A stretch of DNA of 64,000 nt from an uncultured Thermoanaerobaculia bacterium (GCA_964512045.1 CAZEJK010000002.1:23147-87146); one strand, 5' to 3'. Shown: positions 17,160-39,072, counted from the stretch's first letter. Made by a program: numbers and translations. The notes: a model not told the origin generated them from the letters alone.

Positions 17160-20100
17160 CTACCAGGCTCCGTAGCGGGGGTCGTCCTCGATCGTTGCCA
17201 AGAACTCTGCAACAGCGCGGGCGAGCTGGGTGTCCGAGGAAGCCGACAGATCCTCTGTCGGTGGCTGCTCGACGACGATATCCGGCTGCGCCCCGTTGAG
17301 CTCCATGTTGGTGCCGTCTGTGGCCACATACCATCCGCGCATCGGGAGACGCACCAGCGCGCCGTTGATCAGCCGTGTCCCCCCGGTGGAGATGACCGCG
17401 CCGAATGTCGGGGTGCCGACGAGCAGGCCGCGATCGAGGGTCTTGAAGGCCCACGAGAAGATCTCTGCGTTGGAGTAGGAGTCCGAGTTGCAGAGAGTCA
17501 GCGCCGGACGGGTCCACGCCGCGAGGGGAAGCCGGCTCTGCGGGTAGTCGCGAGTGGTGTGCGGCGCACCGCGCGGGATCGTGTAGGCGTGCCGCTCGAC
17601 GCTGAGGACGGTCATCAGGTAGTCGGTGGTCCAGCCGCCTCCGTTGGAGCGGACGTCGATGATCAGACCTTCCCGATCGTGGCCTGCTGCGTACAGATCT
17701 CGCTCGAACTCCTCGAACGACGGCGCGTTCATCCCTTGAATGTGCAGGTAGCCGAGGCGACCGCCGGAAAGCTCCTCGACGATTGCGCGCCGTTGCCGGA
17801 CCCACCGCTCGTAGCGGGCCTGGTACTGGGTACGGAACGACTCCGGGATGACCACGACAGTGCGCTCGGCGCCGTCGGTTCCACGAACCGTCAGAGGAAC
17901 CCGTGTACCGGCAGTATCGGCGAACAGCAGATAGATGTTGGTGGTCTCGGTGACCGGAGTGCCTGCAACGGCGAGGATCCTCTCGCCAGACCTCAGGTTG
18001 ACGTCGGTGCGGGCCGCGGGAGTGTCCGGGAGCACCTCGGTCACCGCGATGCCCGGCGGTCCGAGAGTTGGGTCAAACACTGCCCCGATCCAGCCAGTAC
18101 GCTCTCCCACACCTTCCCTGTTGCCCCGGGTACCGGGCGGGTAGTACCCCATGTGCGATGCGTTCAGCTCGCCGAGCATCAGATTCATGACGTCTGCGAA
18201 GTCGGCCTCCGAGGAGGCTGCAAGGGCCCAGGGCTTGTAGGTTTCCCGCTGCTGCTGCCAGTCGACTCCGTGAAAATCTGGGTCGTAGAAGATCTGGTCG
18301 AGGGCGCGCCACGCCTGCTCGAAGACGACCTCCCGCTCGGCCGCCCTGTCGACCTCATAGGTGGCGGCGAACGGCACCGGATCTCCGGCCTTGCCCTCAA
18401 CATCGACGCGACCGATGGTGCCCTTCCGATCGAGGAAGAAGACCGTGCTCTCGCGGAGCTGGAGCTGCCCGGGACCTCGGTCACCAGTTGTCAGCCGCTG
18501 ACGGTCTTCCCCGTCAAACCGCACCGAGTACAGGTCGCGCTCGCCATCGAGCTCGGCCGTGAACAGGATGCGACGGCCATCATCGGTGACGAATGGAGAG
18601 GCCTCGTCACCCAGCAGCGCAGTGATCGGCTTGGCACGACGCCATAGCTGCTCGAAGTCGATGGCGACCTCAGGCACCGGCTCGCTGGCTCCGTTGGTAT
18701 CCTCTGCTTCTGACTCCTCGTCTGCTGCAGCCTTCTCTTGCTTCTTCTTCTGCTCTTCCTGCTGCTTCCAGTAGGCGAGCCACTGGGCGGAGGTCCGCTG
18801 ATCATCGGCACGAGTGAGCCACACGCCCCACACATCGAAGGTGTCGGCGTGGCGCTTGGTCGTCCATACCAACCGTTTGCCGTCAGGCGACCACGTCGGC
18901 GCCAGATCGTCATCGGGATGCCGGCTGACGTTGTACATCTCACCGCCGGTGGACGGAATGATCCAGACGTCCGCGTTGTATGCGGTGTCAACCCGCGAGA
19001 GTGCGATCCAACGCCCATCCGGTGACCATGCGAAGGTCGAGGGGCTCCAATGCTCGAACAGCGTCGTGTCCGCGGCACCCTCGAGTGTCAGAACGTGCAA
19101 GTCACCGCGGTTCTTGAGGTATGCGATCCGCTGACCATCCGGCGAGAAGCGAGGGCTGTGCTCATCTTCGGGAGTGTCGGTCAATCGGGTTTCGGCGAAC
19201 TCGAACGACGAGAGCCAGTCAGCGTCCTGCTCGTCGGTCATGGCCGGCTGCATCACGAAGAGGTCTCGTTGGCCATCGCGTTCGGCGCTGTACAGGATCG
19301 AGCGTCCGTCCGGAGAGAACTGAATGTCCGATTCCTCGGCGGGTGTGGCGGTGACCTGCACCGTGGGTGGTGCCGCGATGTCCAGCTCGTCGGACGAGAC
19401 GATCCCGGTCACGAAGATGTCGCCGCGGACGAGGAAGGCGGCCAGTGTTGCGTCGTCGTTGATGGCGAGCCCTGTTGCATCGGAGCTGGCCGTGCGCCGG
19501 TCGATCGGGTTGCGAATCTGATCGACCGGGACGTTGAACGTCAGCTTCTTCGGTTGACCGTCGAGCGGTCGGACCGTATAGACGGCGTCCTCGAGCTCGT
19601 AGGCGATCACCGACCCATCTGCGGCAGCTCGAGGAAACCGAACATCGGAGCCGGTGTGATCGGTGAGCTGGACGGTTCGCTCGCTGATGAGATCGAGGAG
19701 AAACAGGTTCTTTCGTCCTTCGCGTGAGCTCAAGATCGCCAGGGTATGGCCATCGATCCAGGAGGGGAAGTCGTCGTCGCCGTCAAAGCTGGTGAGCTGT
19801 ACGTACTCGTCGTCCGATGTCCGTAACCAGATGTCGCGGTTCGCCGCGCCGCGATAGCCGCGGCGAGTCCACTTGGTTGCACCGCGCACGAATGCCGTGG
19901 CGCTTCCATCGGCCGAGTAGGCGCCCCACTCGCCGAGGGCCGACTGGGCGAGGTATGGTGTTCCGCCGTTCACGGGAACCTCGTACAGGGCGGAGTAGAA
20001 GCGGATCGACTCGTCCCGTTCCGACACGAAGAGAACTTTCGACCCGTCAGGAGCGAAGTCCACCGGCGTGTCGTCGAGCGAGGCGGCGGTCAAACGCCTG

Positions 20101-20432
20101 GGCGGTGTGGCCTGCCCGAGGTGCAGAACGAACACGTCCCAGTTGCCGTATCGATCAGAGGCGAACGCGATCATCTCGCCGTCGCGCGACCACACCGGGT
20201 GCCGGTCGGTGGCCGGATGCGCCGTGATCCGCCGTGCCTCGCCACCTTCGGTGGGGACCAGCCAGAGATCGCCTTGCCAGGAGAGGGCGATCATCGTGCC
20301 GTCCGGGGACGGTGCAGGGTGGCGGGGCAATGGCGCCTCGACAGCGTCTGCCGTCTGGACGCTTCCAGCGAGTAGCGCGCCCATGATGAGTGCAACGGTA
20401 GCGACTGCGGTTCGCATGCAAAGATGGGGCAT
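17160..20432 (-). CDS. tricorn-protease-like S41 peptidase (beta-propellers + PDZ + S41 domain), secreted
   Basis: ORF 17160..20591, starting at ATG 20432 after GGAGGA and followed by a signal peptide (MPHLCMRTAVATVALIMGALLAGSVQTADA). It has TolB/WD40-like repeats, then GLIIDVRSNGGGW and NSDSYSNAEIF S41 motifs near the C-terminus. Confidence 0.9.
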   Translation of the reverse strand: MPHLCMRTAVATVALIMGALLAGSVQTADAVEAPLPRHPAPSPDGTMIALSWQGDLWLVPTEGGEARRITAHPATDRHPVWSRDGEMIAFASDRYGNWDVFVLHLGQATPPRRLTAASLDDTPVDFAPDGSKVLFVSERDESIRFYSALYEVPVNGGTPYLAQSALGEWGAYSADGSATAFVRGATKWTRRGYRGAANRDIWLRTSDDEYVQLTSFDGDDDFPSWIDGHTLAILSSREGRKNLFLLDLISERTVQLTDHTGSDVRFPRAAADGSVIAYELEDAVYTVRPLDGQPKKLTFNVPVDQIRNPIDRRTASSDATGLAINDDATLAAFLVRGDIFVTGIVSSDELDIAAPPTVQVTATPAEESDIQFSPDGRSILYSAERDGQRDLFVMQPAMTDEQDADWLSSFEFAETRLTDTPEDEHSPRFSPDGQRIAYLKNRGDLHVLTLEGAADTTLFEHWSPSTFAWSPDGRWIALSRVDTAYNADVWIIPSTGGEMYNVSRHPDDDLAPTWSPDGKRLVWTTKRHADTFDVWGVWLTRADDQRTSAQWLAYWKQQEEQKKKQEKAAADEESEAEDTNGASEPVPEVAIDFEQLWRRAKPITALLGDEASPFVTDDGRRILFTAELDGERDLYSVRFDGEDRQRLTTGDRGPGQLQLRESTVFFLDRKGTIGRVDVEGKAGDPVPFAATYEVDRAAEREVVFEQAWRALDQIFYDPDFHGVDWQQQRETYKPWALAASSEADFADVMNLMLGELNASHMGYYPPGTRGNREGVGERTGWIGAVFDPTLGPPGIAVTEVLPDTPAARTDVNLRSGERILAVAGTPVTETTNIYLLFADTAGTRVPLTVRGTDGAERTVVVIPESFRTQYQARYERWVRQRRAIVEELSGGRLGYLHIQGMNAPSFEEFERDLYAAGHDREGLIIDVRSNGGGWTTDYLMTVLSVERHAYTIPRGAPHTTRDYPQSRLPLAAWTRPALTLCNSDSYSNAEIFSWAFKTLDRGLLVGTPTFGAVISTGGTRLINGALVRLPMRGWYVATDGTNMELNGAQPDIVVEQPPTEDLSASSDTQLARAVAEFLATIEDDPRYGAW

Positions 20433-20785
20433 TAGCTTCCTCCAGCTCGTGGGCAGGTCCACCACCCCGGGCGATGGTGCGGTGTCCACAACGACGTACG
20501 TAACACCCGCGAGGCGGTTTTCCATCCCGCCCATTTGCTGCCCGCACGCACCAGCGGCCACAGCCGAGCTAGGCTCCGGAATGTTCATCAATACTGTGCC
20601 ACCATCGGCCAGCGCCGGCTATCTGCGTGCTGTCGACATCCGCGGCGCGCTGCCGGACTGAGCATTGCGGACGGCGCCGTAGCTGCTCGCCGTGCGCGGC
20701 ACACGGGCTTTCGAGAGTGCAAGCGCATCCGGAGCGCGCCGGCGCAACGACGCTGGCGCCGTCACCGTCTCGACGGTTGACCTGT

Positions 20786-21700: not shown

Positions 21701-21956
21701 GTGCGACCTCCAGCATCTATCGTATACGACCGCCTCCAGAGCGGGGCGCAACCCGGCGTCCGCCAAAGCCGAGCGAGCTTCTCAGTCTCGGTAGCGACAG
21801 TGCTTCCGGCCAGCTCCCGAGGTCTGATATCGTGAACACGAGACAGTGGCCCTCAAGTGGGCGAGCAGGTCTGCTCACCGGTACATGCGGGTAGCGTGTG
21901 CCGATGTGATGTTGAATCGGAATCCATTGAGCGGACCGGAGATAGCGGGGGACGCG

Positions 21957-24900
21957 ATGGGCGAAAGCCGTGATATTACTGAGATCTATCGATTGGTCCG
22001 GGTCCTCAAGGTTGACACCGGAGGCACGGTGTTTGCCGGCGAGGATCCCGACACGGGCGAGCCGGTGGCCATCAAGCTGCTGGAGGGTGGACTTGATGAT
22101 CCGGAGCGGCGGGAGCTGTTCGACAGCGCCATGAACGCGGTGGCGGCGGTGCAGCATCCAGCCGTTCCGAGGTGCTTGGGGCACGGTACGACATCGGCTG
22201 GAAGCGGCTATGTCGTGTGGGAGCTTCTCGAAGCCGAAACGCTCGAGGCGTCTGACAGCGTTGCATCTGACTCGGCTCGAGGTGCGGGCTTACTTGCTGA
22301 TGTGGCGGATGGGGTGGGAGCACTGCACTCCGCTGGAACCGTCCATGGCAACCTGGCACCGGAGAACGTGCTCGTCATCGGCGAGGGAGAGGACCGCAGG
22401 GCAGTCGTGGCCGGCCTCGGGAGCTGGGTGGTCCGGATGCAGCATCAGCCGAATCGGGTGCCCGCCCGATACCTTGCGCCAGAGCGACTCCATGCCGGTG
22501 CTGGTCTGAAGCCGCCGACAGAGGCGGCTGATGTCTACGCACTCGGAGTTTTGGTCTGCGAGGTTTTGGGATTCACGGTTGGATCCGTGACCGGACCGAG
22601 ACCCACCGTGACTCCGGCGACTCCGGCCAACGATGATCGAGTCGATGGACCACGCGACGCGGCACTGGCACTGGCAGGAGTGCTCGAGCTGTGCCTGCGT
22701 CGAGCGCCGGAGCAGCGACCAGCTCCGGGCGATGTTGCCGCAGCGTTGCGACGGTTTGATGGCTCCGTCTCGGGCACCGACGAAGGACCGCCCGTACGAG
22801 GGGCGGTTTCCGCTGCCACATCCGAGCCCGGGCCTGTAGCCGTTCCGCCGCCACTCCCACCATCCAAGGTCGGCGAGGAGGTGTCAGCTCCACCGACAGC
22901 GGCGGACGAGGCAGGTACTGAGGAAGAGCTGCCGGCGTATGAGCCTACGATGGTGATTCGACGTGATGCGGTCGGTGCTGCGGTGACGCCGGAACGCGGG
23001 GAGTCGGAGCCAGGTGGCGAGGCCCCTGCCGCTGAAGGAGCGGCCGACGACACCGACGAGGCCGGGACCGCTGTGGTCGATCGTGCGGAGATTGCGGATG
23101 CCGTGCAGCGCGCTTCGCGCGAAGAGAGCTCTGCCGAGGAAGAAGCGCGGCAGTCCGGAGACAGCGAAGTTGTCGACGAGCCGCCGGCGGAGGATGCCAC
23201 AGTCGCCCTGCCCAGGCGAGAGATCGAGCAGGCTGTGGCCGCGGCCCGCCAGCCGATCGGCCCGCCGGTTGCAGAGACCTCCGGGGAGACCACCGCGCGG
23301 CCCCCTGGCGTGCCGGACGATGCGACCGAGATCGAGGCGGAAGAGAACGCCGAGTCGCGACAGGCGCCATCGCCACCACCGACCTCTGTTGGTGCCGGTC
23401 AGGTGCCGGGGGCGACCGTCATCATGGAGAGGCCTGTGCCTCCGTCCGCCACAGAGATACAGGGCTCGGGTGTTGCCGAGAGCGAACACTACGCGGCAGC
23501 AGAAACCCCCGAGTGGGAGCTCGACGAGAGCCCTGAGCCGACTGCGCCGTTTGATGTCGTACCTCCGGCGGAGATCGAAGCCCCGGAGTGGGAGCTGGAG
23601 GCCGATCCCGTGGAGGCTCGCTCACGACCCGAGCCTTCAGGAGCCACGGAGCAGGCCGGAGAGGGAGGACCATCGGCCGCCAACAACGAGACTCCAGATC
23701 AGACGTCCCGCGAGCAAAGCCACGATCTGCCAGCGAGCCCGACGGATCGAATCGCCCCTCCGAGTGTCGCTAGCCGTTTGGTGGCGCACGCAGACGAGGA
23801 GGAGTTCGACCCAAACCGCACGATGGCCGTGTCGTTTGAGCCCGCGCCGCCGGAGGGCGTCCAGGCGGACGATGCATCGGAGGGTGATGAGGCTGCAGAA
23901 CCTGCGATGGCTGATGCCGTTCCCGGAGAAGAAGCGAGGTCCGACGAAGGCGGGACGGAGCAGACCGAGCCGACGACAGCATTGGCCGGTGAAGAGCGGG
24001 AGGAGATCCGCGAAACTCCGCCCGCGCCACCGCCGCTGGCACCACCGGCCGAGGTTGAGGATACGGGCTGGGCCGGGACGGAACGGGTTGACGCTGAACG
24101 GGAGGAAACGACCGATTCCGGGGCGCGCACAGCACCTGTCCCGCCCGATCAAGCTGAGGATGGGGGGCCGGAGGCCATCCCAGGCCCGACTCCGCCACCG
24201 GTTCCCCCAGAGGGTTCGGCTTCTCGCCCCGCAACCGTGCCACCTCCTGTCAGGGCGGGGCAGCCTCCCCCACCACCGTCACCTCCGAAACCAGATGTGA
24301 CCCCGGCGCCGGCGGTGTCAGGAGTGCCCCAGGATCCGCCGGTCGCGGCGCCCGCACCGCCGCCACCCGAGGCTCCGTCGCCAGCGCAGGAGGATCAACC
24401 GCCTGTCGAAGTGGCCGGAGCCACCGAACGTCCAGGCAAAATGCCTTCGAGGAGACGCTGGGGTCTCTTGGGGGGTATTGCGGCGGTGGTGATCGTGGCT
24501 GTTGTGACCGTCGTGGTGGTGCTGACCCGGGGAGGCGGGGAACCCGCTCCGCCAGAGTCAACGGCGGAGCTGGTGGCCGCGCTGCCCACCGCCGTACCAG
24601 CTCCGACACCTGTCCTTGAGGAGGAGTTGGATGAACCGCCAGAGCTGTTTCCGGATCTGCTCCTCGCCCAGCAGCTGCTCGCAACCGGCGAAACAGAGGC
24701 GGCACGCAGGGCCGTGGAGACTATTCCCGATGAGGTTGTCGACGGGTTCGGAGAGGACGACTTTGACGCGTACCAGGAGCTGGTCGATGTGCTGGCTGGC
24801 GCCGAGCAGAACGAGCTCGAGCAGGCGGTTCGGACGCTTCGCAGGGGCCTGAAGATCGATAGCCCCAAGCTCCTCAGGAGGGCGATAGAGGAGCTGGACC

Positions 24901-25742
24901 GTCAGGACCCCGCACGTCTTGCAGATCGCCCGGACCTTGTCAGCGATATCACTCTCGCCCGCCGGGCCCTGGAGGTGCGCGATCTGATGTGGAGCGCCCA
25001 CAACGCCGGCGACTCGGAAGCCGTGCTGCGGCATGCCGAGACGCTCAACGCGCTCATCCCGGGCTACAGTCGGATTCCGGAGCTGCGGTCTGCTGCCGCC
25101 AGGTCGATCGAGGACGAAGCGGAGGCCGCTGCCACGGCCGGCGATCTGGAACGGGCCATCTCGCGACTGCAGACGATTGCTGCCAGCTGGCCGGATCGCC
25201 CTGGTCTCAACGAGCGGATCGAGGCCCTTCGCGCACGGCAGACCCGCAACCGGCAGATGGCGATGGTGCTCGACCGGGCCCGCGAGCTCGAACGGGCGCG
25301 TCAGCCGGAGCAGGGGCTCGCGGCGCTGGCCGAGGTGACGCCGAGCGAAGCGTACCGAGCCGACTTCGAGCAGGCCCGACAGCGGCTACGGGCTCTGCTC
25401 ACCCAGATGGATCAGGAGTCGCCGACTGTCGAGCTTTCAGACGACGTGGAGCTGGAGTTCCGGAAGGACGATGTCGTGACGCTGAGAGTCCGCGTGGCGG
25501 ACGATCTTCGGGTGGTATCGGTGAGCGGCTTCTGTCGTTCCAAAGGTGACAGCGGCTATCGTACCCTGCCATTGACGGAGAGCGGAGATGGTGTCTGGAC
25601 TGCAACAGTCGGCCCGCAGGTTCACGATAACCGCACGTTGGAGCTGTACGTGACCGCCACGGATCCCTCCGGACACGTGGGGTCTCTCGGATCCGCCGAG
25701 GCGCCCGTTGAGCTGCAGCGCAAGAGGTGGTACCAGCCGTGA
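21957..25742 (+). CDS. membrane-spanning Ser/Thr-kinase-like protein, predicted pseudokinase. It has a very long acidic Pro-rich disordered region, one TM and a periplasmic helical + beta C-terminus.
   Basis: The kinase fold is recognisable (VAIKLL, YLAPERL, DVYALGVLVCEV). HGN (22344-22352) replaces the catalytic-loop HRD, and AGLG (22410-22421) replaces DFG. The TM segment is LLGGIAAVVIVAVVTVVVVL (about 24460-24530). The start codon is uncertain. Confidence 0.8.
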   Translation: MGESRDITEIYRLVRVLKVDTGGTVFAGEDPDTGEPVAIKLLEGGLDDPERRELFDSAMNAVAAVQHPAVPRCLGHGTTSAGSGYVVWELLEAETLEASDSVASDSARGAGLLADVADGVGALHSAGTVHGNLAPENVLVIGEGEDRRAVVAGLGSWVVRMQHQPNRVPARYLAPERLHAGAGLKPPTEAADVYALGVLVCEVLGFTVGSVTGPRPTVTPATPANDDRVDGPRDAALALAGVLELCLRRAPEQRPAPGDVAAALRRFDGSVSGTDEGPPVRGAVSAATSEPGPVAVPPPLPPSKVGEEVSAPPTAADEAGTEEELPAYEPTMVIRRDAVGAAVTPERGESEPGGEAPAAEGAADDTDEAGTAVVDRAEIADAVQRASREESSAEEEARQSGDSEVVDEPPAEDATVALPRREIEQAVAAARQPIGPPVAETSGETTARPPGVPDDATEIEAEENAESRQAPSPPPTSVGAGQVPGATVIMERPVPPSATEIQGSGVAESEHYAAAETPEWELDESPEPTAPFDVVPPAEIEAPEWELEADPVEARSRPEPSGATEQAGEGGPSAANNETPDQTSREQSHDLPASPTDRIAPPSVASRLVAHADEEEFDPNRTMAVSFEPAPPEGVQADDASEGDEAAEPAMADAVPGEEARSDEGGTEQTEPTTALAGEEREEIRETPPAPPPLAPPAEVEDTGWAGTERVDAEREETTDSGARTAPVPPDQAEDGGPEAIPGPTPPPVPPEGSASRPATVPPPVRAGQPPPPPSPPKPDVTPAPAVSGVPQDPPVAAPAPPPPEAPSPAQEDQPPVEVAGATERPGKMPSRRRWGLLGGIAAVVIVAVVTVVVVLTRGGGEPAPPESTAELVAALPTAVPAPTPVLEEELDEPPELFPDLLLAQQLLATGETEAARRAVETIPDEVVDGFGEDDFDAYQELVDVLAGAEQNELEQAVRTLRRGLKIDSPKLLRRAIEELDRQDPARLADRPDLVSDITLARRALEVRDLMWSAHNAGDSEAVLRHAETLNALIPGYSRIPELRSAAARSIEDEAEAAATAGDLERAISRLQTIAASWPDRPGLNERIEALRARQTRNRQMAMVLDRARELERARQPEQGLAALAEVTPSEAYRADFEQARQRLRALLTQMDQESPTVELSDDVELEFRKDDVVTLRVRVADDLRVVSVSGFCRSKGDSGYRTLPLTESGDGVWTATVGPQVHDNRTLELYVTATDPSGHVGSLGSAEAPVELQRKRWYQP

Positions 25743-25828
25743 TGACCGAGCCGAATGCGGGGCGGACCATTGCGACTGCCCGATCTGCCCGATGCCGGGC
25801 CGTACGTCCGGTAGGGCGGGGGTGAGAC

Positions 25829-28800
25829 GTGGCCGAGCCGCTGGCGCATCTCCAGGGCAAGTACGAGATCCTCGAGAAGCTTCGTGAGGGCGGGATGGGG
25901 GCGATCTACAAGGTGCGCCATGTCCTCCTCGAAGAGGTCCGGGTCATCAAGGTGCTGCGTCCCCAGCTGCGAAGTGACGAACGTCTGCGTCAGCGGTTCT
26001 TGCGTGAGGCACGAACGGCGATCCGGGTTCGTCATCCGAACATAGCCCAGCTGTACGACTGCGTGATCGATGAGGACAACAACGCCTTCATCGTCATGGA
26101 GTTCATCGAGGGGATCACCTTTCAAGAGATGCTGACCGCGGGTGGCCCGCCCGCCCTCGGACTGTCCCTCGAGCTGGCGGTGCAGAGCTTGGATGCCCTG
26201 GCGACGATCCATCGCAAGGGGATCATCCACCGTGACATCTCACCGGACAACATCATGTTTTGTGCGGATGAGGACGGACTGCCAGCGGTCAAGCTCATCG
26301 ACCTCGGAATCGCCAAGGTGCTGAAGGGTGATGGCGGCCTGACCGAAACGGGGACGTTTCTCGGTAAGGTGCGCTATGCGTCACCGGAGCACTTCACCGG
26401 CGATGGGCACAACGTCGATGAGCGGAGTGATCTGTACTCGTTCGGTGTTGTGCTGTATGAGCTGGTCACGGGTAGCCGACCGTTCACCGGGAACGACGTC
26501 GCGTCCCTGATTGCAGCGCACCTTTTCCGAGGGCCACTGGGTTTTGCTGAGACCGACCCCGAGGGCCGAGTGCCTGAACCAGTTCGACACACTATCCAGA
26601 CCGCGTTGGCCAAGGAGCCGGACGCACGCTTTCAGACCGCAGCGGAGTTTCAGGCGACGCTGCGGGCACTTCAGCCGGAGCACCCCGTCACCGTCGACGA
26701 CGTGACGAAGGCCCTCGCTGAGGGACACGAGATCGACACGATGCCGATCCGTGTGCGCAAGCCCGGGTCGACTCAGGCGAAGCTCGACCGGCAGTTCGGA
26801 GTCGATCCGACGCCGCCTCCAGTGGGCGGACAGTCCGAAGAGGTGGAGGCGCTGCGCGCGGTCGACGAAACGCTTCGCAGCCCTCCGCCGGCCGTTGCGG
26901 ATCCGATACGGGTGAGGTCGCTCGTCGCCAAGGCGGAGAGTCTGATGGATCTCGGTCAGCAGACCCAAGCTCGCCATCAGCTCGAGATTGTCTTACGGCT
27001 CGAGCCTACCAACAGCGCGGCGCAGCGGCTGATGGAGCAGCTCGAGGAGACGCCTCCCGAGCGCGATCGATGGATGGACGAGATCGACTCGCTGCTGGCC
27101 GGTGAGCAGCGGAAGGGACGATCGAAACGGACGGGGTCGGTACAGGGTCAGGTACAGGCGGGGCCGGATGGTGCCGGTGAAAGCGGGGGAGAGGGAGATG
27201 TCCAGCGCCTCTTGGAGGAGGCACGCGACTGTGTCAATGCGGGCCGTCCGGAGGATGCGGCTCAACGTCTCGAGCACGCGTTGATTATGCAACCGGAGAA
27301 CGCGGCGATCCGGGAGCAGCTGGCGGTTGCCAACGCAGCGGTGCACGACAGGCGGGAGGCTGAGGAGCACGCGCAGATTGAGGCTCGAGCAGAGAGTATT
27401 CGTGATGCGCTGGCAAGTGGACGTGTTGATGCTGCGAAGGCTGCGCTCGCGGAGGCGGTCGAGCAGCTCGGTGACCATGAGGTGCTTGTAGAGCTCGGTG
27501 TCTGCATCGATCAGGAGGTGGCGCGCAGAGCAACCGTGCAGTCCTCGTGTGAGCGGGCGCGATCACTGCTCGCGGACGATTGCCCTGCCGATGCCTTGGC
27601 GGCACTGTCGACGGCCCTGGAGCTCGACCCTTCAAGCTCCGAGATCCGTGAGCTGGCTGCGCAGTGCGAGGCGCGTCAGGCGGCACTGGAGACCGAGCGC
27701 GAGACCTCCTCCGCTCGAGAGACGTTCTGGTCCCAACTGGCGGCAGGCGATGTCGATGGGGCAGCGCTGACTCTGGCCGCACTGGAAGAGCGTCTTCCGA
27801 GTGGCGAGCGCGAGAGGTTGGCGGAGGAGCTGGCACGCGCTCAATCCAGCAGACGGTCGCAGGAGCTCCTTCAGGCCGGTGCGAAGGCTCTGGACGACGG
27901 GGACGTGGAGGAGGCCCTGCAGCTGCTTGGTCGAGCGCTCACGTACAGCCCAGAAGATCTACGGGCAAACGAGCTCTTCGAGCGCGCCGGCGAGGTACAG
28001 CGCAGACGTCGTGAGCTCGACGAGCTGCTTCTGTCAGCGGACGAAAGTGAGCGTGCCGGCAATCTCAACGAGGCCATGCAGGCGTTGGAGCGAGCCAGAG
28101 AGCTGGATGCGGAAAGCCGGGAGATCTCGGAGAGGTTGCAGACGGTTGCGGACAGGTTGGTGAGCTCACGGCGAGCTGCGCGCAAAGCTGCTGAGCTGAA
28201 CGCAGCGGTGGATCAGATCACAGCCGAGCTCCAAGCGCATCGGTTCGAGCCAGCGAAACGCGCTATTGATGTGGCGGAACGTGTCTATGGCGCGGTTGCG
28301 CAGATCGTGGAGCTGAGGAAGCAGCTCGAGGCGTCGCAGGCCAAAGCTCGCGTTGAGGCGGTGGCACCGTTGCTCGCTCGAGCGCGGCAGAGTGCGATGG
28401 TCGAGGACTACGACCTGGCTTTGAAGGCGCTACGGGAGGCTCGGAGAGCTGCTCCGAACCATCCCGAGGTCGAGCATCTGATCGAGATGTATGCGTCGTC
28501 GGATCGGGCGCGGCGTGAGAATCAGCGGCAGTCTCGAGAGCTGACGCACGCTGCCGTGAGCATCGAGGCGCTCCTGAGCCGCGGGGACCGAGAGGAGGCT
28601 GAGCGCGCGCTGGATCTCGCGGAGAAGATGTTCGGCATCCAGCACGAGCTCGCACAGCTGAGGCGTCGGCTCGAGGCGTCGGTGGAGGTGGCTGTCGCAG
28701 ACCCGGCCGCGACGGTGGAGGCGGCATTGCGAGCATTGGATGCGGGCCACCGGAATGAGGCGATCCGTTTGCTGCGCGAGGTGCAGCAGATGGCGCCGGA

Positions 28801-28987
28801 CGACAGCCGTGTTCAGGGTTTGCTGGACGAGGTCATGCGTCGAGAGGCGGAGGCGAGCATCGAGGCACATCTCGAGCGTGGCGAGATGGAGCGCGCACGA
28901 TGGACCTTGGAGCTGGCCCTGGGAACGTACGGGCGAGTGGGACGGCTGCCGCGACTCGAAGAGGAGATCGATCACGGCGGGGCGTGA
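25829..28987 (+). CDS. Ser/Thr protein kinase (canonical catalytic motifs) with an approximately 700-aa helical-repeat/coiled-coil C-terminal region
   Basis: GTG start. It has GGMGAIYKV, VIKVL, HRDISPDNIMF (HRD at 26228-26236), DLGIAK and YASPEHF. Many TPR-like or coiled-coil heptads follow (ALELDPSSSEIRELAAQCEAR and similar). Confidence 0.9.
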   Translation: MAEPLAHLQGKYEILEKLREGGMGAIYKVRHVLLEEVRVIKVLRPQLRSDERLRQRFLREARTAIRVRHPNIAQLYDCVIDEDNNAFIVMEFIEGITFQEMLTAGGPPALGLSLELAVQSLDALATIHRKGIIHRDISPDNIMFCADEDGLPAVKLIDLGIAKVLKGDGGLTETGTFLGKVRYASPEHFTGDGHNVDERSDLYSFGVVLYELVTGSRPFTGNDVASLIAAHLFRGPLGFAETDPEGRVPEPVRHTIQTALAKEPDARFQTAAEFQATLRALQPEHPVTVDDVTKALAEGHEIDTMPIRVRKPGSTQAKLDRQFGVDPTPPPVGGQSEEVEALRAVDETLRSPPPAVADPIRVRSLVAKAESLMDLGQQTQARHQLEIVLRLEPTNSAAQRLMEQLEETPPERDRWMDEIDSLLAGEQRKGRSKRTGSVQGQVQAGPDGAGESGGEGDVQRLLEEARDCVNAGRPEDAAQRLEHALIMQPENAAIREQLAVANAAVHDRREAEEHAQIEARAESIRDALASGRVDAAKAALAEAVEQLGDHEVLVELGVCIDQEVARRATVQSSCERARSLLADDCPADALAALSTALELDPSSSEIRELAAQCEARQAALETERETSSARETFWSQLAAGDVDGAALTLAALEERLPSGERERLAEELARAQSSRRSQELLQAGAKALDDGDVEEALQLLGRALTYSPEDLRANELFERAGEVQRRRRELDELLLSADESERAGNLNEAMQALERARELDAESREISERLQTVADRLVSSRRAARKAAELNAAVDQITAELQAHRFEPAKRAIDVAERVYGAVAQIVELRKQLEASQAKARVEAVAPLLARARQSAMVEDYDLALKALREARRAAPNHPEVEHLIEMYASSDRARRENQRQSRELTHAAVSIEALLSRGDREEAERALDLAEKMFGIQHELAQLRRRLEASVEVAVADPAATVEAALRALDAGHRNEAIRLLREVQQMAPDDSRVQGLLDEVMRREAEASIEAHLERGEMERARWTLELALGTYGRVGRLPRLEEEIDHGGA

Positions 28988-28993
28988 GCGACG

Positions 28994-29019
28994 TCACGTC
29001 GAGACGTGATCTCTTTTTG
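28994..29019 (+). terminator. candidate intrinsic terminator after the kinase gene
   Basis: TCACGT cgag ACGTGA hairpin (28994-29009) followed by tctcttttt, starting 7 nt after the TGA at 28985-28987. Confidence 0.4.
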
Positions 29020-29044: not shown

Positions 29045-30997
29045 ATGCATCCAGACTGCTCCACGAGGTTGGAGACGGTCGAGCTGACGGAGCTTCGTGG
29101 TCCCGATATGGCCGCCGGAGGAGCGTCCAAGGGCGCTGAGAAGTCCCGGCTCGACACTGAGGATACGGCCGCCTTGCGAGGTACGGAGAGCACGGCAAGC
29201 GGACCGGGGTTCGTCGGTGGCATCACCCTTGAGGTTCTGGAAGGTCCGATGGATGGGACGGTGCTTTCTGGCGATCTCGACTCGGTGAGCATCGGGCGGC
29301 GGCCGGGAAACGATCTGAGCCTGTTCGCCGATCCGTTGGTGTCCTCTGAGCATGCGCGGTTGGTTCGGACCGCCGGCGAGGATGGAACGTCGCGCTGGCT
29401 TCTCGAAGACCGCGGCAGCACCAACGGCACCTGGGTTCGAACGGGACAGCTCAACGCTCCCCAGCTGATCGAGCCGGGCGATGCGTTCGTGGTCGGAAAC
29501 GCAGTGGTGCGGTGCTCATCCGGTATCGCGCAGGAGACGTTTACCCCGGACGCCGGAACCCTCCGCAGCGAGATGCAACGGTTTCGACAGCGCTTTTCGG
29601 ACGCGACGGCCAGGGGCTGGGGCGCGGCGATGATGTTGGCGGCTCACGAGCGCAGTGTGGCGATCTCGGATCGGCACCTTTTTCTCGGTGTGGTGCGGTT
29701 GAACCCCGAGCTGCCGGTTGTCGCCCGCGGGGAGGGACCGATCACCCGCGGCGCGGTGTCCGCGGTAGCGGCCAACGCTGAGTTCTGGAGCAACGGAGAC
29801 GAGTGGATTCCGGCCCAGCTGTCGGAGGTGGTGGCGCAGACAGAGCCTCTGTTTGATGTCGAGCTGGAGATCACGCCACGACTGTTGCGGATCATACGCG
29901 GCGCCGAGCAGCTCGCGAGCTCGGCAGGCGGTGTGCAGATCGAGGTCTACGACGTCCTCCGTGCGCTGCTCGACGATCCGAACAACCGAGTGCGGGAGCT
30001 GCTCCGTCGGGCGAAGGCGGACATGGGTGCGGTGGAGTCGGCATTGGCGTCTGCACCTCGGCGCGCGCCAGCACCGCGTCGGGAGGGTTCTGAAGGCTCG
30101 GCGGCCGCGGTGGCAACGGCACCACCTGTGGCGCGTGCGAAGGACCTCAAGGTACCCGTGGTCGACGGACGGACCCACGAGACGGCCAACGAGCTTCGTG
30201 GAGTCTTGGCGCTGTATCATCTTGCCTCTGCCGATGAACGCCGGGCCGCAATCAAGGAGATGCTGACGCACGAGGTCTCGAAGCTTCCGGCCGACCAGCG
30301 GTTGCGGGTGCTCTCGCAGCTGCCCGACCTGTTTCCAGTGCACGCAGCCGGAACGGCGGGCCTGGAAGAGACATCCCGGTTGCGGGAACGAGTGGCGGAG
30401 CTCGAGGCCCAGGTTTCCTCTCAGCGCAAGGTTGCACCTCCGCCGATCTCGTCGATTCCATGGCCGCAGGTCCTCGCCCGCGAAGGTGGCGATCTCGAGG
30501 AGTGTCAGCCGTTGGATCGCTCACCACTGCTGTTCCTCCGCGAGGTGTTGCAGTTCTCTGTCGCCATCGAACGGTTCGTCGTGTCGATGGTGTGCGGTCT
30601 GACGGATCGATCGATCTCGACCGCGAGGATCCAGTTGCCCGGCTTCAAGACGTCTCTTCAAGGGCATGCGAAGCACGTCGGCGAGGCGCAGGAGCTGGCG
30701 GGATCCGAGCTGCACGATTACCTCTCCTCGTTGGAGACATGGTTGGTGGCGGCTATGGCTGCGTACTACGAGAGTCCAGAGGTGTGGTTCGCTGATTTCT
30801 GGGGAAAGATCAACCCGGCCCGGGTGGAAGCTCGGTTTTCGAAGAAGCTGTTTAGCGAGCAGAAGTGCTGGTCGCATTACAAGGAAACGGTGCGCTCGAT
30901 CTCGCCGGATCTGGTCGGCGATGAGATTCAGGCGATCGTGCGCAAGAAGGCTCAGGAACAGTACAAGCGTATGAAGGAAAGGAGATCGACACGATGA
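29045..30997 (+). CDS. fha: T6SS-associated FHA-domain protein (Fha/TagH-like) with an inserted Clp_N-like double repeat
   Basis: FHA core: SVSIGRRPGNDLSLFADPLVSSEHARLV ... LEDRGSTNGTWV. Two Clp_N-like repeats: ISDRHLFLGVVRLNPE, and ITPRLLRIIRGAEQLASSAGGVQIEVYDVLRALLDDPNNRVRELLRRAKADMG. It sits directly upstream of tssJ with an ATGA overlap. The start is chosen from the -10 geometry, so the ORF-track start at 29006 is less likely. Confidence 0.85.
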   Translation: MHPDCSTRLETVELTELRGPDMAAGGASKGAEKSRLDTEDTAALRGTESTASGPGFVGGITLEVLEGPMDGTVLSGDLDSVSIGRRPGNDLSLFADPLVSSEHARLVRTAGEDGTSRWLLEDRGSTNGTWVRTGQLNAPQLIEPGDAFVVGNAVVRCSSGIAQETFTPDAGTLRSEMQRFRQRFSDATARGWGAAMMLAAHERSVAISDRHLFLGVVRLNPELPVVARGEGPITRGAVSAVAANAEFWSNGDEWIPAQLSEVVAQTEPLFDVELEITPRLLRIIRGAEQLASSAGGVQIEVYDVLRALLDDPNNRVRELLRRAKADMGAVESALASAPRRAPAPRREGSEGSAAAVATAPPVARAKDLKVPVVDGRTHETANELRGVLALYHLASADERRAAIKEMLTHEVSKLPADQRLRVLSQLPDLFPVHAAGTAGLEETSRLRERVAELEAQVSSQRKVAPPPISSIPWPQVLAREGGDLEECQPLDRSPLLFLREVLQFSVAIERFVVSMVCGLTDRSISTARIQLPGFKTSLQGHAKHVGEAQELAGSELHDYLSSLETWLVAAMAAYYESPEVWFADFWGKINPARVEARFSKKLFSEQKCWSHYKETVRSISPDLVGDEIQAIVRKKAQEQYKRMKERRSTR

Positions 30998-31488
30998 GCA
31001 TCGGGGGCCTGGATCGGTACGGCGTGTGGTTGGCCTGTGCGGCAGTCGGAGCAGCTCTTACGCTCGGCACCATTGGCTGTGCGAGCAGCTCGACGGCCCA
31101 CTTCGTCTGCGACGCTCGCGTCAATGATGGTCTGCTCCTGACTATCGACCTCATCGAGGTGGCGGACGAGGAGGCGCAACAGATCCGTCAGACGGGAGAT
31201 GACTGGTTCTACTCCGACCTGCGGCGACAGCTTGCAGGTCGTACCAAGACCATCGCTGTCAAGGGAGGATGCGACGAGCGCATCGATCTGACCGTCCTCA
31301 CTGCAAAGGAGAAGGTTCTCCGCAAGAAGAAGGGGTACGGGATTCTCGCCGTCATCGGCGACTACCAGACGCGGGGTGGAGAGCGGATCTCCGGAAGCAT
31401 GCAGTTCCTCGATCGCGAGCAGTGGAAAGGCAAGACGACGCTTGTTCGGGTCCACGATGCGTATCTCACCATCGAGGGGAGCCGTTAG
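30994..31488 (+). CDS. tssJ: type VI secretion outer-membrane lipoprotein TssJ
   Basis: 164 aa with the lipobox LTLGTIGC. Size and position between fha and tssK match TssJ/SciN, and LLLTIDLIEVADEE is a TssJ-like beta segment. Confidence 0.75.
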   Translation: MSIGGLDRYGVWLACAAVGAALTLGTIGCASSSTAHFVCDARVNDGLLLTIDLIEVADEEAQQIRQTGDDWFYSDLRRQLAGRTKTIAVKGGCDERIDLTVLTAKEKVLRKKKGYGILAVIGDYQTRGGERISGSMQFLDREQWKGKTTLVRVHDAYLTIEGSR

Positions 31489-31532: not shown

Positions 31533-32900
31533 GTGAGCAGGATACCCGAAGTCAACTGGTCTGAGGGCATGTTTCTCCGGCCGCAGCATCTGCAGCAGTT
31601 CTCACGGTACGTCCGGGGACTGCTCAGCGAAACCTGGCGGCAGACGCATCCATACCTCTGGGGTCTCGATGATATCGAGATCGATGGTGAGCAGCTCGAG
31701 GGATTCACCTTTGCAGTGAGACGCCTCAATGTTGTCTTGCCCGACGGTACGAGGGCTGCCACACCAACCAGCCTGACAGTCAACTCGAGGTCGTTCAAGG
31801 ACGAGCTGCGACAGGCAGAGGGACCGATGATGGTCTGGCTCGGCGTGCCAACGCTGAGCGAGGGCGATGCGAACGCGGCACGTCCTGAGGAGCTTGGCGG
31901 ACGAGATCTTCGCTACCAGTTGGAGTCGGTGGAGGTTGCGGACGAGAACGCCGGCGGCACTCCGCGTGCGATGGAGATCCGGCGTCTGCGGGCTCGGCTG
32001 TTTTTCGGCAATGAGAACCGTGAGGGGTATGACTGTCTTCCGATCGCCGCCCTGGAGCGCTCGGGTCAGGGGAGCAACGAGCCGAAGATTGCGGACAGCT
32101 TTTTCCCCCCGGTAGTGCGGCTCGGTGCCTGGGAGCCGTTGCAGCAGTTGGCGGAGTCGGTGCTGCATCGCGTGGAGGCGAAGCAGCGGTTTCTCCGCGC
32201 GGAGGTCCAAGAGGGGAGGATCAACCTCGAGGGAGCCGGAGGAGGAAGCTGGCAAGCAGTGTTCAAGCTGCAGATCGTCGGCTCGTTCTTGCACGTGCTC
32301 CGTCAGGTGATCGCCACGCCAGGGATCCATCCGTTCACGGTCTACGTTGAGCTGGCGCGGCTGGCGGGCGAGCTCTCGATCTTCGAGGAGGAAGGCGCCG
32401 AGGCGATCGAGGTTCCACTGTACGACCACACGCGTCTTGGACCGTGCTTCCATGCGACGGTGTTCACGGTCGAGCGTTTGCTCGAGAAGATTCTGTCGGG
32501 TCGGTTCGTCCACGTACCCTTCGAGCTTTCGGGCGAGCTTTTGATTGCCCGTCTGCAGGAGTCGTGGCTCGGCCCGAAGAGCGAGCTGTTCTTGTGTATC
32601 GAAAGCGACCTGCCAGATCGCAGCATCTTGTCACGGATCGAGACCGCCAAGATCGGCGCCTCGGTGGATCTTCCGCTGCTCAAGCAACGGCGGTTGTTCG
32701 GTCTCGACATCGAGCTTCTGAGCCGAACTCCGGGCGGGCTTCCTGCTCGCTCCGAGCTGCACTACTTCGCCATCAACCGCGAAGGACCCTACTGGGAGTC
32801 GGTTGAACGGGAGCGCGAGATCGCCATTTTGGGAGGGATCGACCCGAAGCTGCGCTTCAGCTTGTACATCGTGCTGCAGCCGTCTGATGATGAGCGGTAG
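31533..32900 (+). CDS. tssK: type VI secretion baseplate protein TssK
   Basis: The N-terminus VNWSEGMFLRPQHLQQ is the TssK/ImpJ signature. It is 455 aa with a GTG start after GAGGAGAGAGGA. Confidence 0.92.
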   Translation: MSRIPEVNWSEGMFLRPQHLQQFSRYVRGLLSETWRQTHPYLWGLDDIEIDGEQLEGFTFAVRRLNVVLPDGTRAATPTSLTVNSRSFKDELRQAEGPMMVWLGVPTLSEGDANAARPEELGGRDLRYQLESVEVADENAGGTPRAMEIRRLRARLFFGNENREGYDCLPIAALERSGQGSNEPKIADSFFPPVVRLGAWEPLQQLAESVLHRVEAKQRFLRAEVQEGRINLEGAGGGSWQAVFKLQIVGSFLHVLRQVIATPGIHPFTVYVELARLAGELSIFEEEGAEAIEVPLYDHTRLGPCFHATVFTVERLLEKILSGRFVHVPFELSGELLIARLQESWLGPKSELFLCIESDLPDRSILSRIETAKIGASVDLPLLKQRRLFGLDIELLSRTPGGLPARSELHYFAINREGPYWESVEREREIAILGGIDPKLRFSLYIVLQPSDDER

Positions 32901-32966: not shown

Positions 32967-33650
32967 GTGATGGAGAGTCAAGATTACCGAACCGAGCTGT
33001 TCCGGCTCGCGTCACCGCTGTTTCTGTACCTGGTGTCGTTTCGCCGCAAGGTGAAGCGCGGGTTCCACGTCGATGAGAGTGAGGCCCGCCAGGAGCTCGA
33101 GAGGATCTTCACCGACATGGATATGCGGGCACGGCGCGACCCACGCCTCGATGCGCTGTACGAGAAGGCGCGCTATCCCCTGGTGATTCTCGCCGATGAA
33201 GTGCTCCTGAACTCGGGCTGGGACAACGCGGCGAGCTGGGAGAAGGACGTGTTGGAGGAACGCTACTTCAACACCAACATCGGTGGCGACAAGCTGTTCC
33301 ATATCGCCGATGAGCTTCGCCATGACGAGGTGGAGCTTGCAGTGATCCTGTACACGGCTGTCTGCCTCGGTGTCAAGGGCCGGTACCACCGTCAGCCGGA
33401 GAAGCTCGAGGAGATGCGGAGCAGGTTGTATCGGCAGCTGGGGGAGTACCTGGGGGACGTGCAAAATGTGCTGACTCCGGATGCGTACCACGTCTCACCC
33501 AAGCCGGCTCAGAGGCTCTCGGTGGGGGTTGCCATGACCAGAGTGGCAATCGCGGCTGTGGTGCTCCTGGTGTCGTACTGGATCGCGAACTGGGCAATCT
33601 GGACCAGCGCTGTGGCGGATCTGCGCGAGATCGTGCGCGGTCTGGGCTGA
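32967..33650 (+). CDS. tssL: type VI secretion membrane protein TssL (DotU family), without a peptidoglycan-binding extension
   Basis: DotU-like segment ALYEKARYPLVILADEVLLNSGW and a single C-terminal TM (AIAAVVLLVSYWIANWAIW). An alternative ATG lies at 32970. Confidence 0.88.
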   Translation: MMESQDYRTELFRLASPLFLYLVSFRRKVKRGFHVDESEARQELERIFTDMDMRARRDPRLDALYEKARYPLVILADEVLLNSGWDNAASWEKDVLEERYFNTNIGGDKLFHIADELRHDEVELAVILYTAVCLGVKGRYHRQPEKLEEMRSRLYRQLGEYLGDVQNVLTPDAYHVSPKPAQRLSVGVAMTRVAIAAVVLLVSYWIANWAIWTSAVADLREIVRGLG

Positions 33651-38115: not shown

Positions 38116-39072
38116 ATGGGGATCCTGAGCCGCCTGAAAGAACGTCTGGAGTCCGAGCGGGACCTGCAGCTACCCCTTTCGACGTATGGAAAGCTTCCGA
38201 TTTACAAGGACTTTCTTCGATCAGGACTGACCGGCAAGGAGGCCCAGTCAGTCCGTCAATGGCTCGACCGCGGGATCAGTCATTTCTGGGCCTCCCGGCC
38301 GGAGTACCGATCGCAGGAGATCTACCAGCACGCCCTCTTCTTGAGATTCGACGGCGGACAGCGTGCCGTACTGGGCGTGCTGTGGGGGAGCCACGATGAG
38401 GGGATGCTCCGGCGGTTTCCGTTCATCTGCTTCACGACGGTACCCGTCGGTCGAGGTCCTGTTCCATCGTTGACAGCTCTCGATCTTCTCTCGCAAATGG
38501 TCGACCAGGCGCGACGGTGGCGACAGGACCTCGATCAGTTGGCATCGGTGGAGGCGTTCTACGGATGGTCGCGCGGTCGCACGTTCACGCTCAAAGAGCG
38601 CCCCGAGCGGGTGATCCGGCAGGAGGTCCGTGAGCGGTTCGGAGCGGTCACTGTCGGCGATTTCGCCGCCTTGCTGTACGCTGGCGACGAGCCGTTGACC
38701 TCCTGGGCCGCGCTCCATCGGAGGGTCGAGCGGCAGCTGGCAGGAGAGCGTCTGGCAGCTCGGTTTCCTACGTGTGCCCGTGGATCGATCCTCGACCAGA
38801 CCAAGCTGTGGTGCACGATGCTATCCGATCGTGTGGCGCGGGGTCGTGGCTGGAGCATCATCGTCCCGCTCTACGACGAGCACAGCGGGGTCGTGATGCT
38901 GCAGCGCCAGATCCGAGACGACGATGTGTTCGTGTTCCACCCAGAGATGCCAGACTACGACTTCATCGAAGATCTGCGACCGGAGCAGATCAGTACCAAT
39001 GGCGCGGACCCCTCTGCCGTTGATCCCGAGCAGAGATTGTTGGGATCGTCGAGCGGCGAGGGAGCGGCCTGA
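38116..39072 (+). CDS. tagF: type VI secretion-associated protein TagF (ImpM family)
   Basis: The N-terminal YGKLPIYKDFLRSGL ... VRQWLDRGI matches the TagF GKLPxxGDF-type signature. It lies immediately after tssM. Confidence 0.8.
   Translation: MGILSRLKERLESERDLQLPLSTYGKLPIYKDFLRSGLTGKEAQSVRQWLDRGISHFWASRPEYRSQEIYQHALFLRFDGGQRAVLGVLWGSHDEGMLRRFPFICFTTVPVGRGPVPSLTALDLLSQMVDQARRWRQDLDQLASVEAFYGWSRGRTFTLKERPERVIRQEVRERFGAVTVGDFAALLYAGDEPLTSWAALHRRVERQLAGERLAARFPTCARGSILDQTKLWCTMLSDRVARGRGWSIIVPLYDEHSGVVMLQRQIRDDDVFVFHPEMPDYDFIEDLRPEQISTNGADPSAVDPEQRLLGSSSGEGAA

Follow-up and report, generated by a model that had tools for sequence, protein, structure and literature searches.

A receptor-type pseudokinase beside an active-type TPR kinase, Fha and type VI secretion genes in a Thermoanaerobaculia bacterium: a candidate split receptor kinase

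A stretch of 64,000 nucleotides from an uncultured Thermoanaerobaculia bacterium (GCA_964512045.1, CAZEJK010000002.1:23147-87146; the whole stretch is called the window below) carries two Hanks-type kinase genes directly upstream of fha and the membrane-complex genes of a type VI secretion system (T6SS). Of the two kinase genes, the first encodes a membrane-spanning protein, termed PsK here, which is almost certainly a pseudokinase as judged from its motifs, and the second encodes ActK, a soluble kinase with a TPR tail which in all likelihood is active. PsK, ActK and Fha probably form a signalling module that feeds the T6SS in this organism, a reading suggested by gene order and gene fusions in relatives. 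To the complete chain that we propose, in which receptor kinase, pseudokinase and FHA protein make up a split module and the T6SS is a facultative output, we assign a probability of about 0.45 from sequence data and analogy. The PsK family, found in the Acidobacteriota, class Thermoanaerobaculia, is retained with or without a T6SS and is apparently undescribed, no description having been found in the literature searched.

A preliminary description of this DNA had proposed the two tandem genes with an 86-nt gap, and both open reading frames (ORFs) were found where it had placed them, with an ATG at 21957 and a stop at 25742 for PsK and a GTG start for ActK at 25829, 86 nt beyond. The PsK reading frame 21846-25742 contains the ATG at 21957, at which ortholog alignments begin with the same Met and which follows a sequence resembling a ribosome-binding site (GGAG/GGGGGA); one source gives an alternative start at 21885 (1285 aa). 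Residues 22-256 match the Pfam families Pkinase and PK_Tyr_Ser-Thr at 48.9 and 67.4 bits, above cut-off but weak compared with the 133.8 bits of ActK. In a phmmer alignment to PknA of Mycobacterium tuberculosis, PsK VHGNLAPENVLV is aligned with VHRDVKPGNILI, and no Asp occupies the DFG position. It had been claimed that PsK keeps VAIK and APE of the kinase scaffold while HGN and AGLG replace HRD and DFG, so that both catalytic aspartates are lost. The coordinates of the two motifs proved exact, and the loss was borne out by the PknA alignment and by 20 orthologs; a catalytic Asp merely shifted in position was looked for against PknA, and none lies at the DFG position, while Asn stands at the HRD Asp.

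The alignment of the PsK kinase domain with the 20 orthologs and four active relatives extended these losses. The alphaC Glu position is filled by Ala, Met or Val and the GxGxxG loop is missing in PsK and its orthologs, while K40 of VAIK, the catalytic-loop N137 and APE are retained. Residues V25, K40, F55, H130, N132, N137, G153, G155, A174, P175, E176, D192 (the alphaF Asp) and R254 are invariant in all 21 proteins. An AlphaFold2 (AF2) model of the domain from the 21-sequence alignment shows a complete kinase fold (pLDDT 89.3, pTM 0.89), whose best Foldseek matches are PknS of Xanthomonas citri, PknI and PknA, with kinases at E 1e-13. Thus, PsK has the Hanks-type fold by Pfam and by structure, and its motif loss, apart from the Lys, is kept across orthologs. 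As the catalytic Asp, the Mg-binding Asp, the alphaC Glu and the Gly-rich loop are all absent, the motifs indicate a domain incapable of canonical phosphotransfer. The degenerate motifs point to neither decay nor chance, because the pattern is invariant in 20 orthologs and common to most family representatives. With its invariant beta3 Lys and catalytic-loop Asn, the domain may yet have kept the ability to bind a ligand.

The preliminary description had also taken PsK to span the membrane and to expose a periplasmic domain. This was supported by the hydropathy scan, which places a single transmembrane (TM) helix behind a positively charged KMPSRRR segment, and by AF2, which predicts a TPR-like repeat followed by an immunoglobulin (Ig)-like sandwich for the C-terminal 370 residues (pLDDT 88.9). 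Foldseek matched the latter domain with the PPAD Ig-like domain, the sulfite-oxidase dimerisation domain and the TPR of P58IPK. The fold search returned generic TPR and Ig-like matches alone, and therefore no ligand can be inferred. Between the kinase-like domain and the membrane lies a linker, presumed to be disordered and cytoplasmic from its composition (18% Pro, 16% Ala, 15% Glu; net charge -86; 37 Thr), which is two to three times as long as in the orthologs (whole proteins of 770-1100 aa by ORF length, compared with 1261 aa here). PEWEL-like motifs are repeated within this linker (22767-24449).

In ActK, the Pkinase match covers profile positions 1-253 of 263 and is followed by multiple TPR matches, while no TM helix was found in the hydropathy scan; the protein is thus soluble with a helical-repeat scaffold, as first described. 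Its HRD, D(L)G and SPE motifs were likewise confirmed by the sequence and the Pfam score, and GGMG, K41, E60, N141 and a Thr-rich activation loop accompany them, so that the active Ser/Thr kinase motifs are all present from the Gly-rich loop to the APE position. In the catalytic loop, HRDISPDN, a Ser occupies the place of the usual Ser/Thr-kinase Lys. This is common to the whole subfamily, and of the ~58 kinase domains of the source genome roughly five lack the Lys in the same way; by analogy with further active kinases that are devoid of it, the substitution would be compatible with activity. The loop H-x-N-L-[SA]-P-[DE]-N of PsK parallels HRD[IVM][SA]PDN of the ActK subfamily. Descent of PsK from the ActK-type subfamily, considered because both lack the catalytic-loop Lys, was rejected, as neither BLAST nor profile scores bring the two particularly near to each other. 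At least four further degenerate kinase-like domains occur in the source genome, at C21:30303-32363(-), C7:38292-41399(+), C279:2646-4241(-) and C381:1-3960(-) (contig:coordinates), of which the C21 example reads LVHGCLHPAL with VAGFGLGE; pseudokinases make up ~8% of its ~58 Hanks domains.

The distribution of PsK was followed in 41 Thermoanaerobaculia genomes of the same family and order, including the source genome and its closest T6SS-bearing relatives, G026 and G038. A six-frame search revealed an ortholog of the PsK periplasmic domain in 35 of the 41 (30-40% identical along its entire length; ORFs of 770-1100 aa), while TssK is encoded in three, namely the source genome, G026 and G038. 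Because of these counts, PsK is not T6SS-specific, nor is it a T6SS component in the strict sense. With a profile built from 13 periplasmic domains, at least 279 clusters (50% identity) were obtained at E<=1e-30 among 1.84 billion representatives, and 1359 matches at E<=0.001. Both aspartates are lost in 90 of 103 full-length representatives of the family, which carry the signature H-x-N / G-phi-G; position by position, Asn replaces the HRD Asp in 84, Gly replaces the DFG Asp in 90 and the beta3 Lys is present in 90. PsK is the top match (471 bits) of what we define here as the PsK_C-domain receptor (pseudo)kinase family, of which the periplasmic TPR-like and Ig-like domain is the hallmark. 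The N-domain profile gives 263 bits for PsK and at most 123 for any other kinase of the source genome, and in the tree PsK falls together with PsKs from its own taxonomic family. Proteins of this family are named 'hypothetical protein' or 'serine/threonine-protein kinase' in the sources, and none of PsK, ActK and Fha receives an equivalog name from NCBIfam. Queried with the kinase-like domain, a word-indexed search returned distant generic kinases only (<=34% identity); the view of PsK as an orphan, which that search would have allowed, was discarded when periplasmic-domain searches recovered the family.

Indications that PsK, ActK and Fha belong together came from relatives. In G028 and G356, two genera of a sister family (f2), an operon-like row PsK-fusion kinase-ActK-TPR-Fha corresponds to PsK-ActK-Fha of the source genome (family f1). 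All ORFs of these rows are intact, and the proteins are only ~35-40% identical. The Fha of G028 and G356 is a true ortholog of T6SS-type Fha, matched in its N- and C-terminal parts, and the best match to the ActK TPR tail among 40 relatives is the kinase of the G028 operon. ActK-type kinases directly adjoin Fha orthologs in four of the eight genomes whose Fha matches over the N-terminal part. Fha orthologs at loci L020 (11981-13522) and L124 (14501-16234), beside the kinases in genomes without TssK and TssC, have no counterpart of residues ~354-490 of the window Fha. In another Thermoanaerobaculia family, the Fha frame at L130 (3809-7255, minus strand) is 1149 aa long with one in-frame stop noted in the region; its FHA domain lies at residues 559-627, and ~500 residues upstream have no Pfam match.

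In the fusion kinase of these rows, an ActK-type, active-type kinase domain (GGMG, HRD, DLG; 55-60% identity with ActK) is joined to a single TM helix and a periplasmic domain of the PsK type; the protein is in effect an 'unsplit' version of the PsK and ActK pair. It occurs in several genera and accounts for six of the 103 family representatives; in G309, from a third family, it stands divergently adjacent to fha-tssJ. Examples are found at L020 5954-8746, L124 8411-11239, L028 14879-17395 and L121 2730-5672. In the tree, the periplasmic domains of the fusions nest among the PsKs from their own taxonomic family and, in f2, cluster with those of the adjacent PsK genes, an indication of duplication or domain exchange. 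The source genome has no fusion kinase, and PsK is its single protein with such a periplasmic domain; any sensing for ActK by that domain must therefore go through PsK here. A search for related loci with the PsK C-domain alone gave no confirmed match.

These observations allow a most likely mechanism to be drawn, for which PknB-MviN-FhaA, PpkA-TssL-Fha and EssB/YukC served as templates. In a split receptor kinase, PsK would face the membrane and the periplasm, and ActK would provide the catalysis. PsK would sense a signal or anchor at the envelope and recruit or allosterically activate ActK. The latter would phosphorylate Thr residues in the PsK linker, in Fha or in a protein of the membrane complex, for instance TssL. 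Through its FHA domain, Fha would then read the resulting phosphothreonine (pThr) and, in this organism, license TssJLM/TssK/TssA assembly, with TagF as the conserved brake. The links of this chain differ in strength: that ActK acts on the Fha/T6SS axis is slightly favoured, whereas the partnership of PsK with ActK falls somewhat short of even odds. A broader idea, which we regard as rather unlikely, is that members of the PsK family do the sensing and docking in split receptor kinases generally: an envelope signal would be picked up by the periplasmic TPR/Ig domain, the soluble TPR kinase would be switched on allosterically by the dead one, the phosphorylated linker would serve as a multivalent FHA landing pad, and in this organism PsK would be the membrane trigger of the T6SS; the fusions of relatives would be the same device in unsplit form. 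If true, a pseudokinase would fill a role in T6SS assembly for which only an active kinase, PpkA, has been known to date.

Several observations weigh against the proposed module or its link to secretion. G026 and G038 have the identical fha-tssJ-tssK-tssL-tssM-tagF-tssA cassette with pyruvate kinase upstream and PsK on another contig, the cassette of G398 is likewise free of kinases, and no kinase was found within ~13 kb of six further Thermoanaerobaculia T6SS loci. Conversely, TssK and TssC are missing from G028 (96% complete) and from G356, and therefore the kinase-Fha module can exist without a T6SS. The 35 and 3 of 41 genomes with PsK and TssK, respectively, tell the same way. PsK genes are usually solitary, and their neighbours vary by lineage and are often housekeeping genes. 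PsK and ActK-type kinases do not co-occur strictly, six genomes having PsK only and three an ActK-type kinase only, and for this reason their phyletic co-occurrence was not used as support. The kinase-like domain of PsK is not specifically related to ActK-type domains, the window has no PP2C phosphatase (the three PP2C genes of the genome are on other contigs), and a terminator-like hairpin separates ActK from fha. Taken together, these results mean that the pair cannot be kept as a T6SS-dedicated analogue of PpkA, the kinase type that the preliminary description had brought up for comparison. What it had proposed for PsK, a role as sensor or allosteric partner of ActK, has the indirect support of the recurring gene order and of the fusions. 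Compared with its T6SS output, the proposed module of PsK, ActK-type kinase and Fha is the older and the more general.

The first of the alternatives, less probable than the proposed chain and still a serious one, is that PsK serves throughout the lineage as an envelope sensor or scaffold independent of the T6SS, for instance in cell-envelope or proteostasis signalling. Its position would then be historical with no coupling, and any kinase control of Fha would come from ActK alone. The family counts, the kinase-free T6SS cassettes, the loose co-occurrence with ActK-type kinases and the housekeeping neighbourhoods all agree with it; no conserved partner gene was found among the clustered neighbours of 20 PsK loci, where high-GC shadow ORFs dominate the clusters, and the upstream genes of two further family members are unrelated to each other. 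It does not readily account for the order PsK-(fusion kinase)-ActK-Fha in two families of the order, since by chance a given pair of genes would be adjacent at ~1 of several thousand positions, nor for the fusions, in which the PsK-type sensor domain is physically tied to ActK-type catalytic domains.

An improbable alternative is that neither kinase acts on the T6SS, which would be controlled post-translationally by TagF alone, and by transcription, while PsK and ActK would make up a transcription unit of their own and act on different targets. The hairpin between ActK and fha agrees with separate transcription, but terminator-like sites number 7 in the region compared with 4.5 +/- 2.2 in shuffles, which is not above chance and makes this weak evidence; no sigma-70-like promoter was found in the region scan. 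The preservation of the fha-to-tssA cassette without kinases in G026, G038 and G398 also speaks for it, as do the constant presence of TagF and the failure to find PppA in the window. The ActK-type subfamily is moreover typical of the lineage, present in multiple copies and for the most part not linked to Fha: none of 24 other acidobacterial ActK-type loci from a pattern scan adjoins Fha or T6SS genes, nor does any of five kinases with ActK-like TPR tails, and a T6SS-specific ActK subfamily was ruled out on these grounds. Against this alternative, Fha keeps the canonical pThr-binding residues GR...SxxH...NG, which implies input from a Thr kinase, and an ActK-type kinase adjoins Fha in half of the eight genomes mentioned above. 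Finally, a non-canonical activity of PsK, for example as a nucleotide-binding switch or through chemistry of the AMPylation or glutamylation kind seen in SelO or SidJ, is very improbable: K40, H130, N132 and N137, on which it would draw, are invariant despite the loss of their canonical partners and precedents exist (PMC12599244), but neither catalytic position holds an acidic residue, the Gly-rich loop and the alphaC Glu are gone, and maintenance of the fold can explain the invariant H, N, D192 and R254.

Comparison with known systems helps to place the split receptor kinase that we propose. Thr phosphorylation controls T6SSs through the PpkA(TagE)/PppA(TagG)/Fha1(TagH)/TagF pathway in Pseudomonas aeruginosa H1, Agrobacterium tumefaciens and Serratia (PMC3953482, PMC5995506, PMC6082577), where TssL phosphorylated by PpkA binds Fha (PMC3953482). 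The present locus is similar in that the T6SS membrane-complex genes, with those for Fha and TagF, have a Hanks kinase gene beside them and in that one partner, here PsK, combines a kinase-fold domain, a TM helix and a periplasmic domain. It differs in that the membrane-spanning protein is catalytically dead and the active-type kinase soluble, and in that the periplasmic domain is TPR plus Ig-like and not vWA as in PpkA. Neither PsK nor ActK has the one-protein architecture of PpkA/TagE (active kinase, TM, vWA). The conserved linkage of PpkA with PppA and Fha is also wanting: Fha is adjacent, but PppA is absent from the locus, the kinases are missing from the cassettes of G026, G038 and G398 and from other T6SS loci, and they are present in relatives without T6SS. 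The PsK-ActK pair is not a PpkA orthologue.

Among membrane pseudokinases, mycobacterial MviN(MurJ) is phosphorylated by PknB and recruits FhaA according to Gee et al. (2012, Sci Signal) as cited in PMC3953482, and its pseudokinase belongs to the ActPs3 family (PMC12599244). Like PsK, MviN resides in the membrane and has a Hanks pseudokinase domain on the cytoplasmic side, and we take it as a mechanistic template. Unlike PsK, MviN/ActPs3 has lost the VAIK Lys (VALT) together with all motifs, is fused to a flippase, occurs in Actinobacteria and acts on cell-wall synthesis. The membrane pseudokinase EssB/YukC is a scaffold in the secretion system of type VIIb (T7SSb) (PMC12599244, PMC9600267, PMC3526858). 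Like PsK it is bitopic, with its pseudokinase at the N-terminal end in the cytoplasm and its C-terminal domain outside, and it acts without catalysis in a system whose ATPase has FHA domains; it differs in the loss of all three motifs including the Lys, in a truncated activation loop and in its occurrence in Firmicutes and a type VII system. The PsK locus is of the T6SS type, and EssB/YukC was not among the best 60 of 508 PDB sequence matches or the best 50 of ~2000 fold matches of PsK. The transmembrane Hanks kinase PknS is needed for T6SS activation in X. citri. The structure of its kinase domain (9eed) is the best structural match of the PsK domain, at 25% identity, but PknS is an active kinase and, in this PknS/EcfK control, acts on transcription via an extracytoplasmic function sigma factor.

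Published bacterial pseudokinase families comprise ActPs1-3, GLW, CP1, DYD and DLHK, several of them membrane-anchored (PMC12599244). DLHK shares GFG at the DFG position, but is cytosolic, keeps the HRD Asp and has lost the Lys; GLW has GLW for HRD and has also lost the Lys; CP1 is cytosolic and associated with COG3899; ActPs and DYD families belong to Actinobacteria and Firmicutes. The PsK family, in contrast, is acidobacterial, keeps the Lys and combines H-x-N and G-phi-G with a TPR and Ig periplasmic domain. In motifs, topology and taxon PsK thus differs from all seven families, compared by their written descriptions only (PMC12599244).

Post-translational triggering of T6SSs is understood in few Proteobacteria only, via one active membrane kinase, PpkA. 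If PsK and ActK indeed feed Fha, this would mean a different wiring in the Acidobacteriota, where T6SS biology is essentially unstudied, and one of many uncharacterised bacterial pseudokinase families would gain a testable function. The fused and split forms also offer a natural experiment on the origin of a pseudokinase and its cooperation with active paralogues. A caution should be added, as T6SS adjacency in one genome overstated the specificity of a family that mostly occurs without any T6SS.

The features of the window are collected in Table 1.

Table 1. Coordinates of the features discussed, counted from the first letter of the window.
Feature	Coordinates	Strand	Basis
Tricorn-like PD40/S41 protease, upstream of PsK	17160-20591	-	Pfam
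PsK, receptor-type pseudokinase gene (1261 aa)	21957..25742	+	Pfam kinase match
PsK cytoplasmic pseudokinase domain, complete Hanks fold (res 1-275)	21957..22781	+	AF2, Foldseek, invariant residues
PsK beta3 (VAIK) Lys K40, kept	22074..22076	+	Lys in 20/20 orthologs
PsK HGN for HRD (H130/N132), catalytic Asp replaced by Asn	22344..22352	+	PknA alignment; family representatives
PsK AGLG for xDFG (A152-G155), Mg-binding Asp replaced by Gly153	22410..22421	+	Alignments; family representatives
PsK linker, acidic, Pro/Ala/Glu-rich, 561 residues	22767..24449	+	Composition
PsK single TM helix, predicted (~res 835-857)	24459..24527	+	Hydropathy scan; KMPSRRR before (positive-inside)
PsK periplasmic domain, predicted TPR-like helical repeat (~260 aa) and Ig-like beta-sandwich (~100 aa)	24630..25739	+	AF2, Foldseek
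ActK, soluble active-type Hanks kinase with TPR tail, 1052 aa	25829..28987	+	Pfam Pkinase and TPR families
ActK HRD (H134 R135 D136), loop HRDISPDN	26228..26236	+	Sequence
ActK DLG (D158 L159 G160)	26300..26308	+	Sequence
ActK SPE (S185 P186 E187)	26381..26389	+	Sequence
Terminator-like hairpin and T-run, between ActK stop and fha start	28993..29010	+	Terminator scan
Fha, T6SS-type FHA protein	29045..30997	+	Pfam FHA; orthologs head T6SS cassette in G026, G038, G309, G398
TssJ-sized ORF	30994-31488	+	Size; same order in G026, G038, G398
TssK	31533-32900	+	Pfam; same order in G026, G038, G398
TssL	32967-33650	+	Pfam; same order in G026, G038, G398
TssM	33661-38106	+	Pfam; same order in G026, G038, G398
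TagF	38116-39072	+	Pfam; same order in G026, G038, G398
TssA	39090-40832	+	Pfam; same order in G026, G038, G398

The placement of the two kinase genes directly upstream of fha and the T6SS membrane-complex genes, which the preliminary description had given, agrees with the Pfam assignments. PsK, ActK, Fha and this T6SS half-locus are co-directional through 40832, and a convergent queG closes the block. The source genome assembly consists of 629 contigs (6.4 Mb), and tssC is found on another contig. In TagF (318 aa), the TagF_N match is confined to residues 23-146, and the C-terminal ~170 residues have no family match. A tricorn-like protease lies within ~2 kb of PsK or a fusion kinase in three unrelated loci, namely the window, L017 (17535-20000) and L132 (6250-9477); this proximity may be due to chance, such proteases being common in Acidobacteriota.

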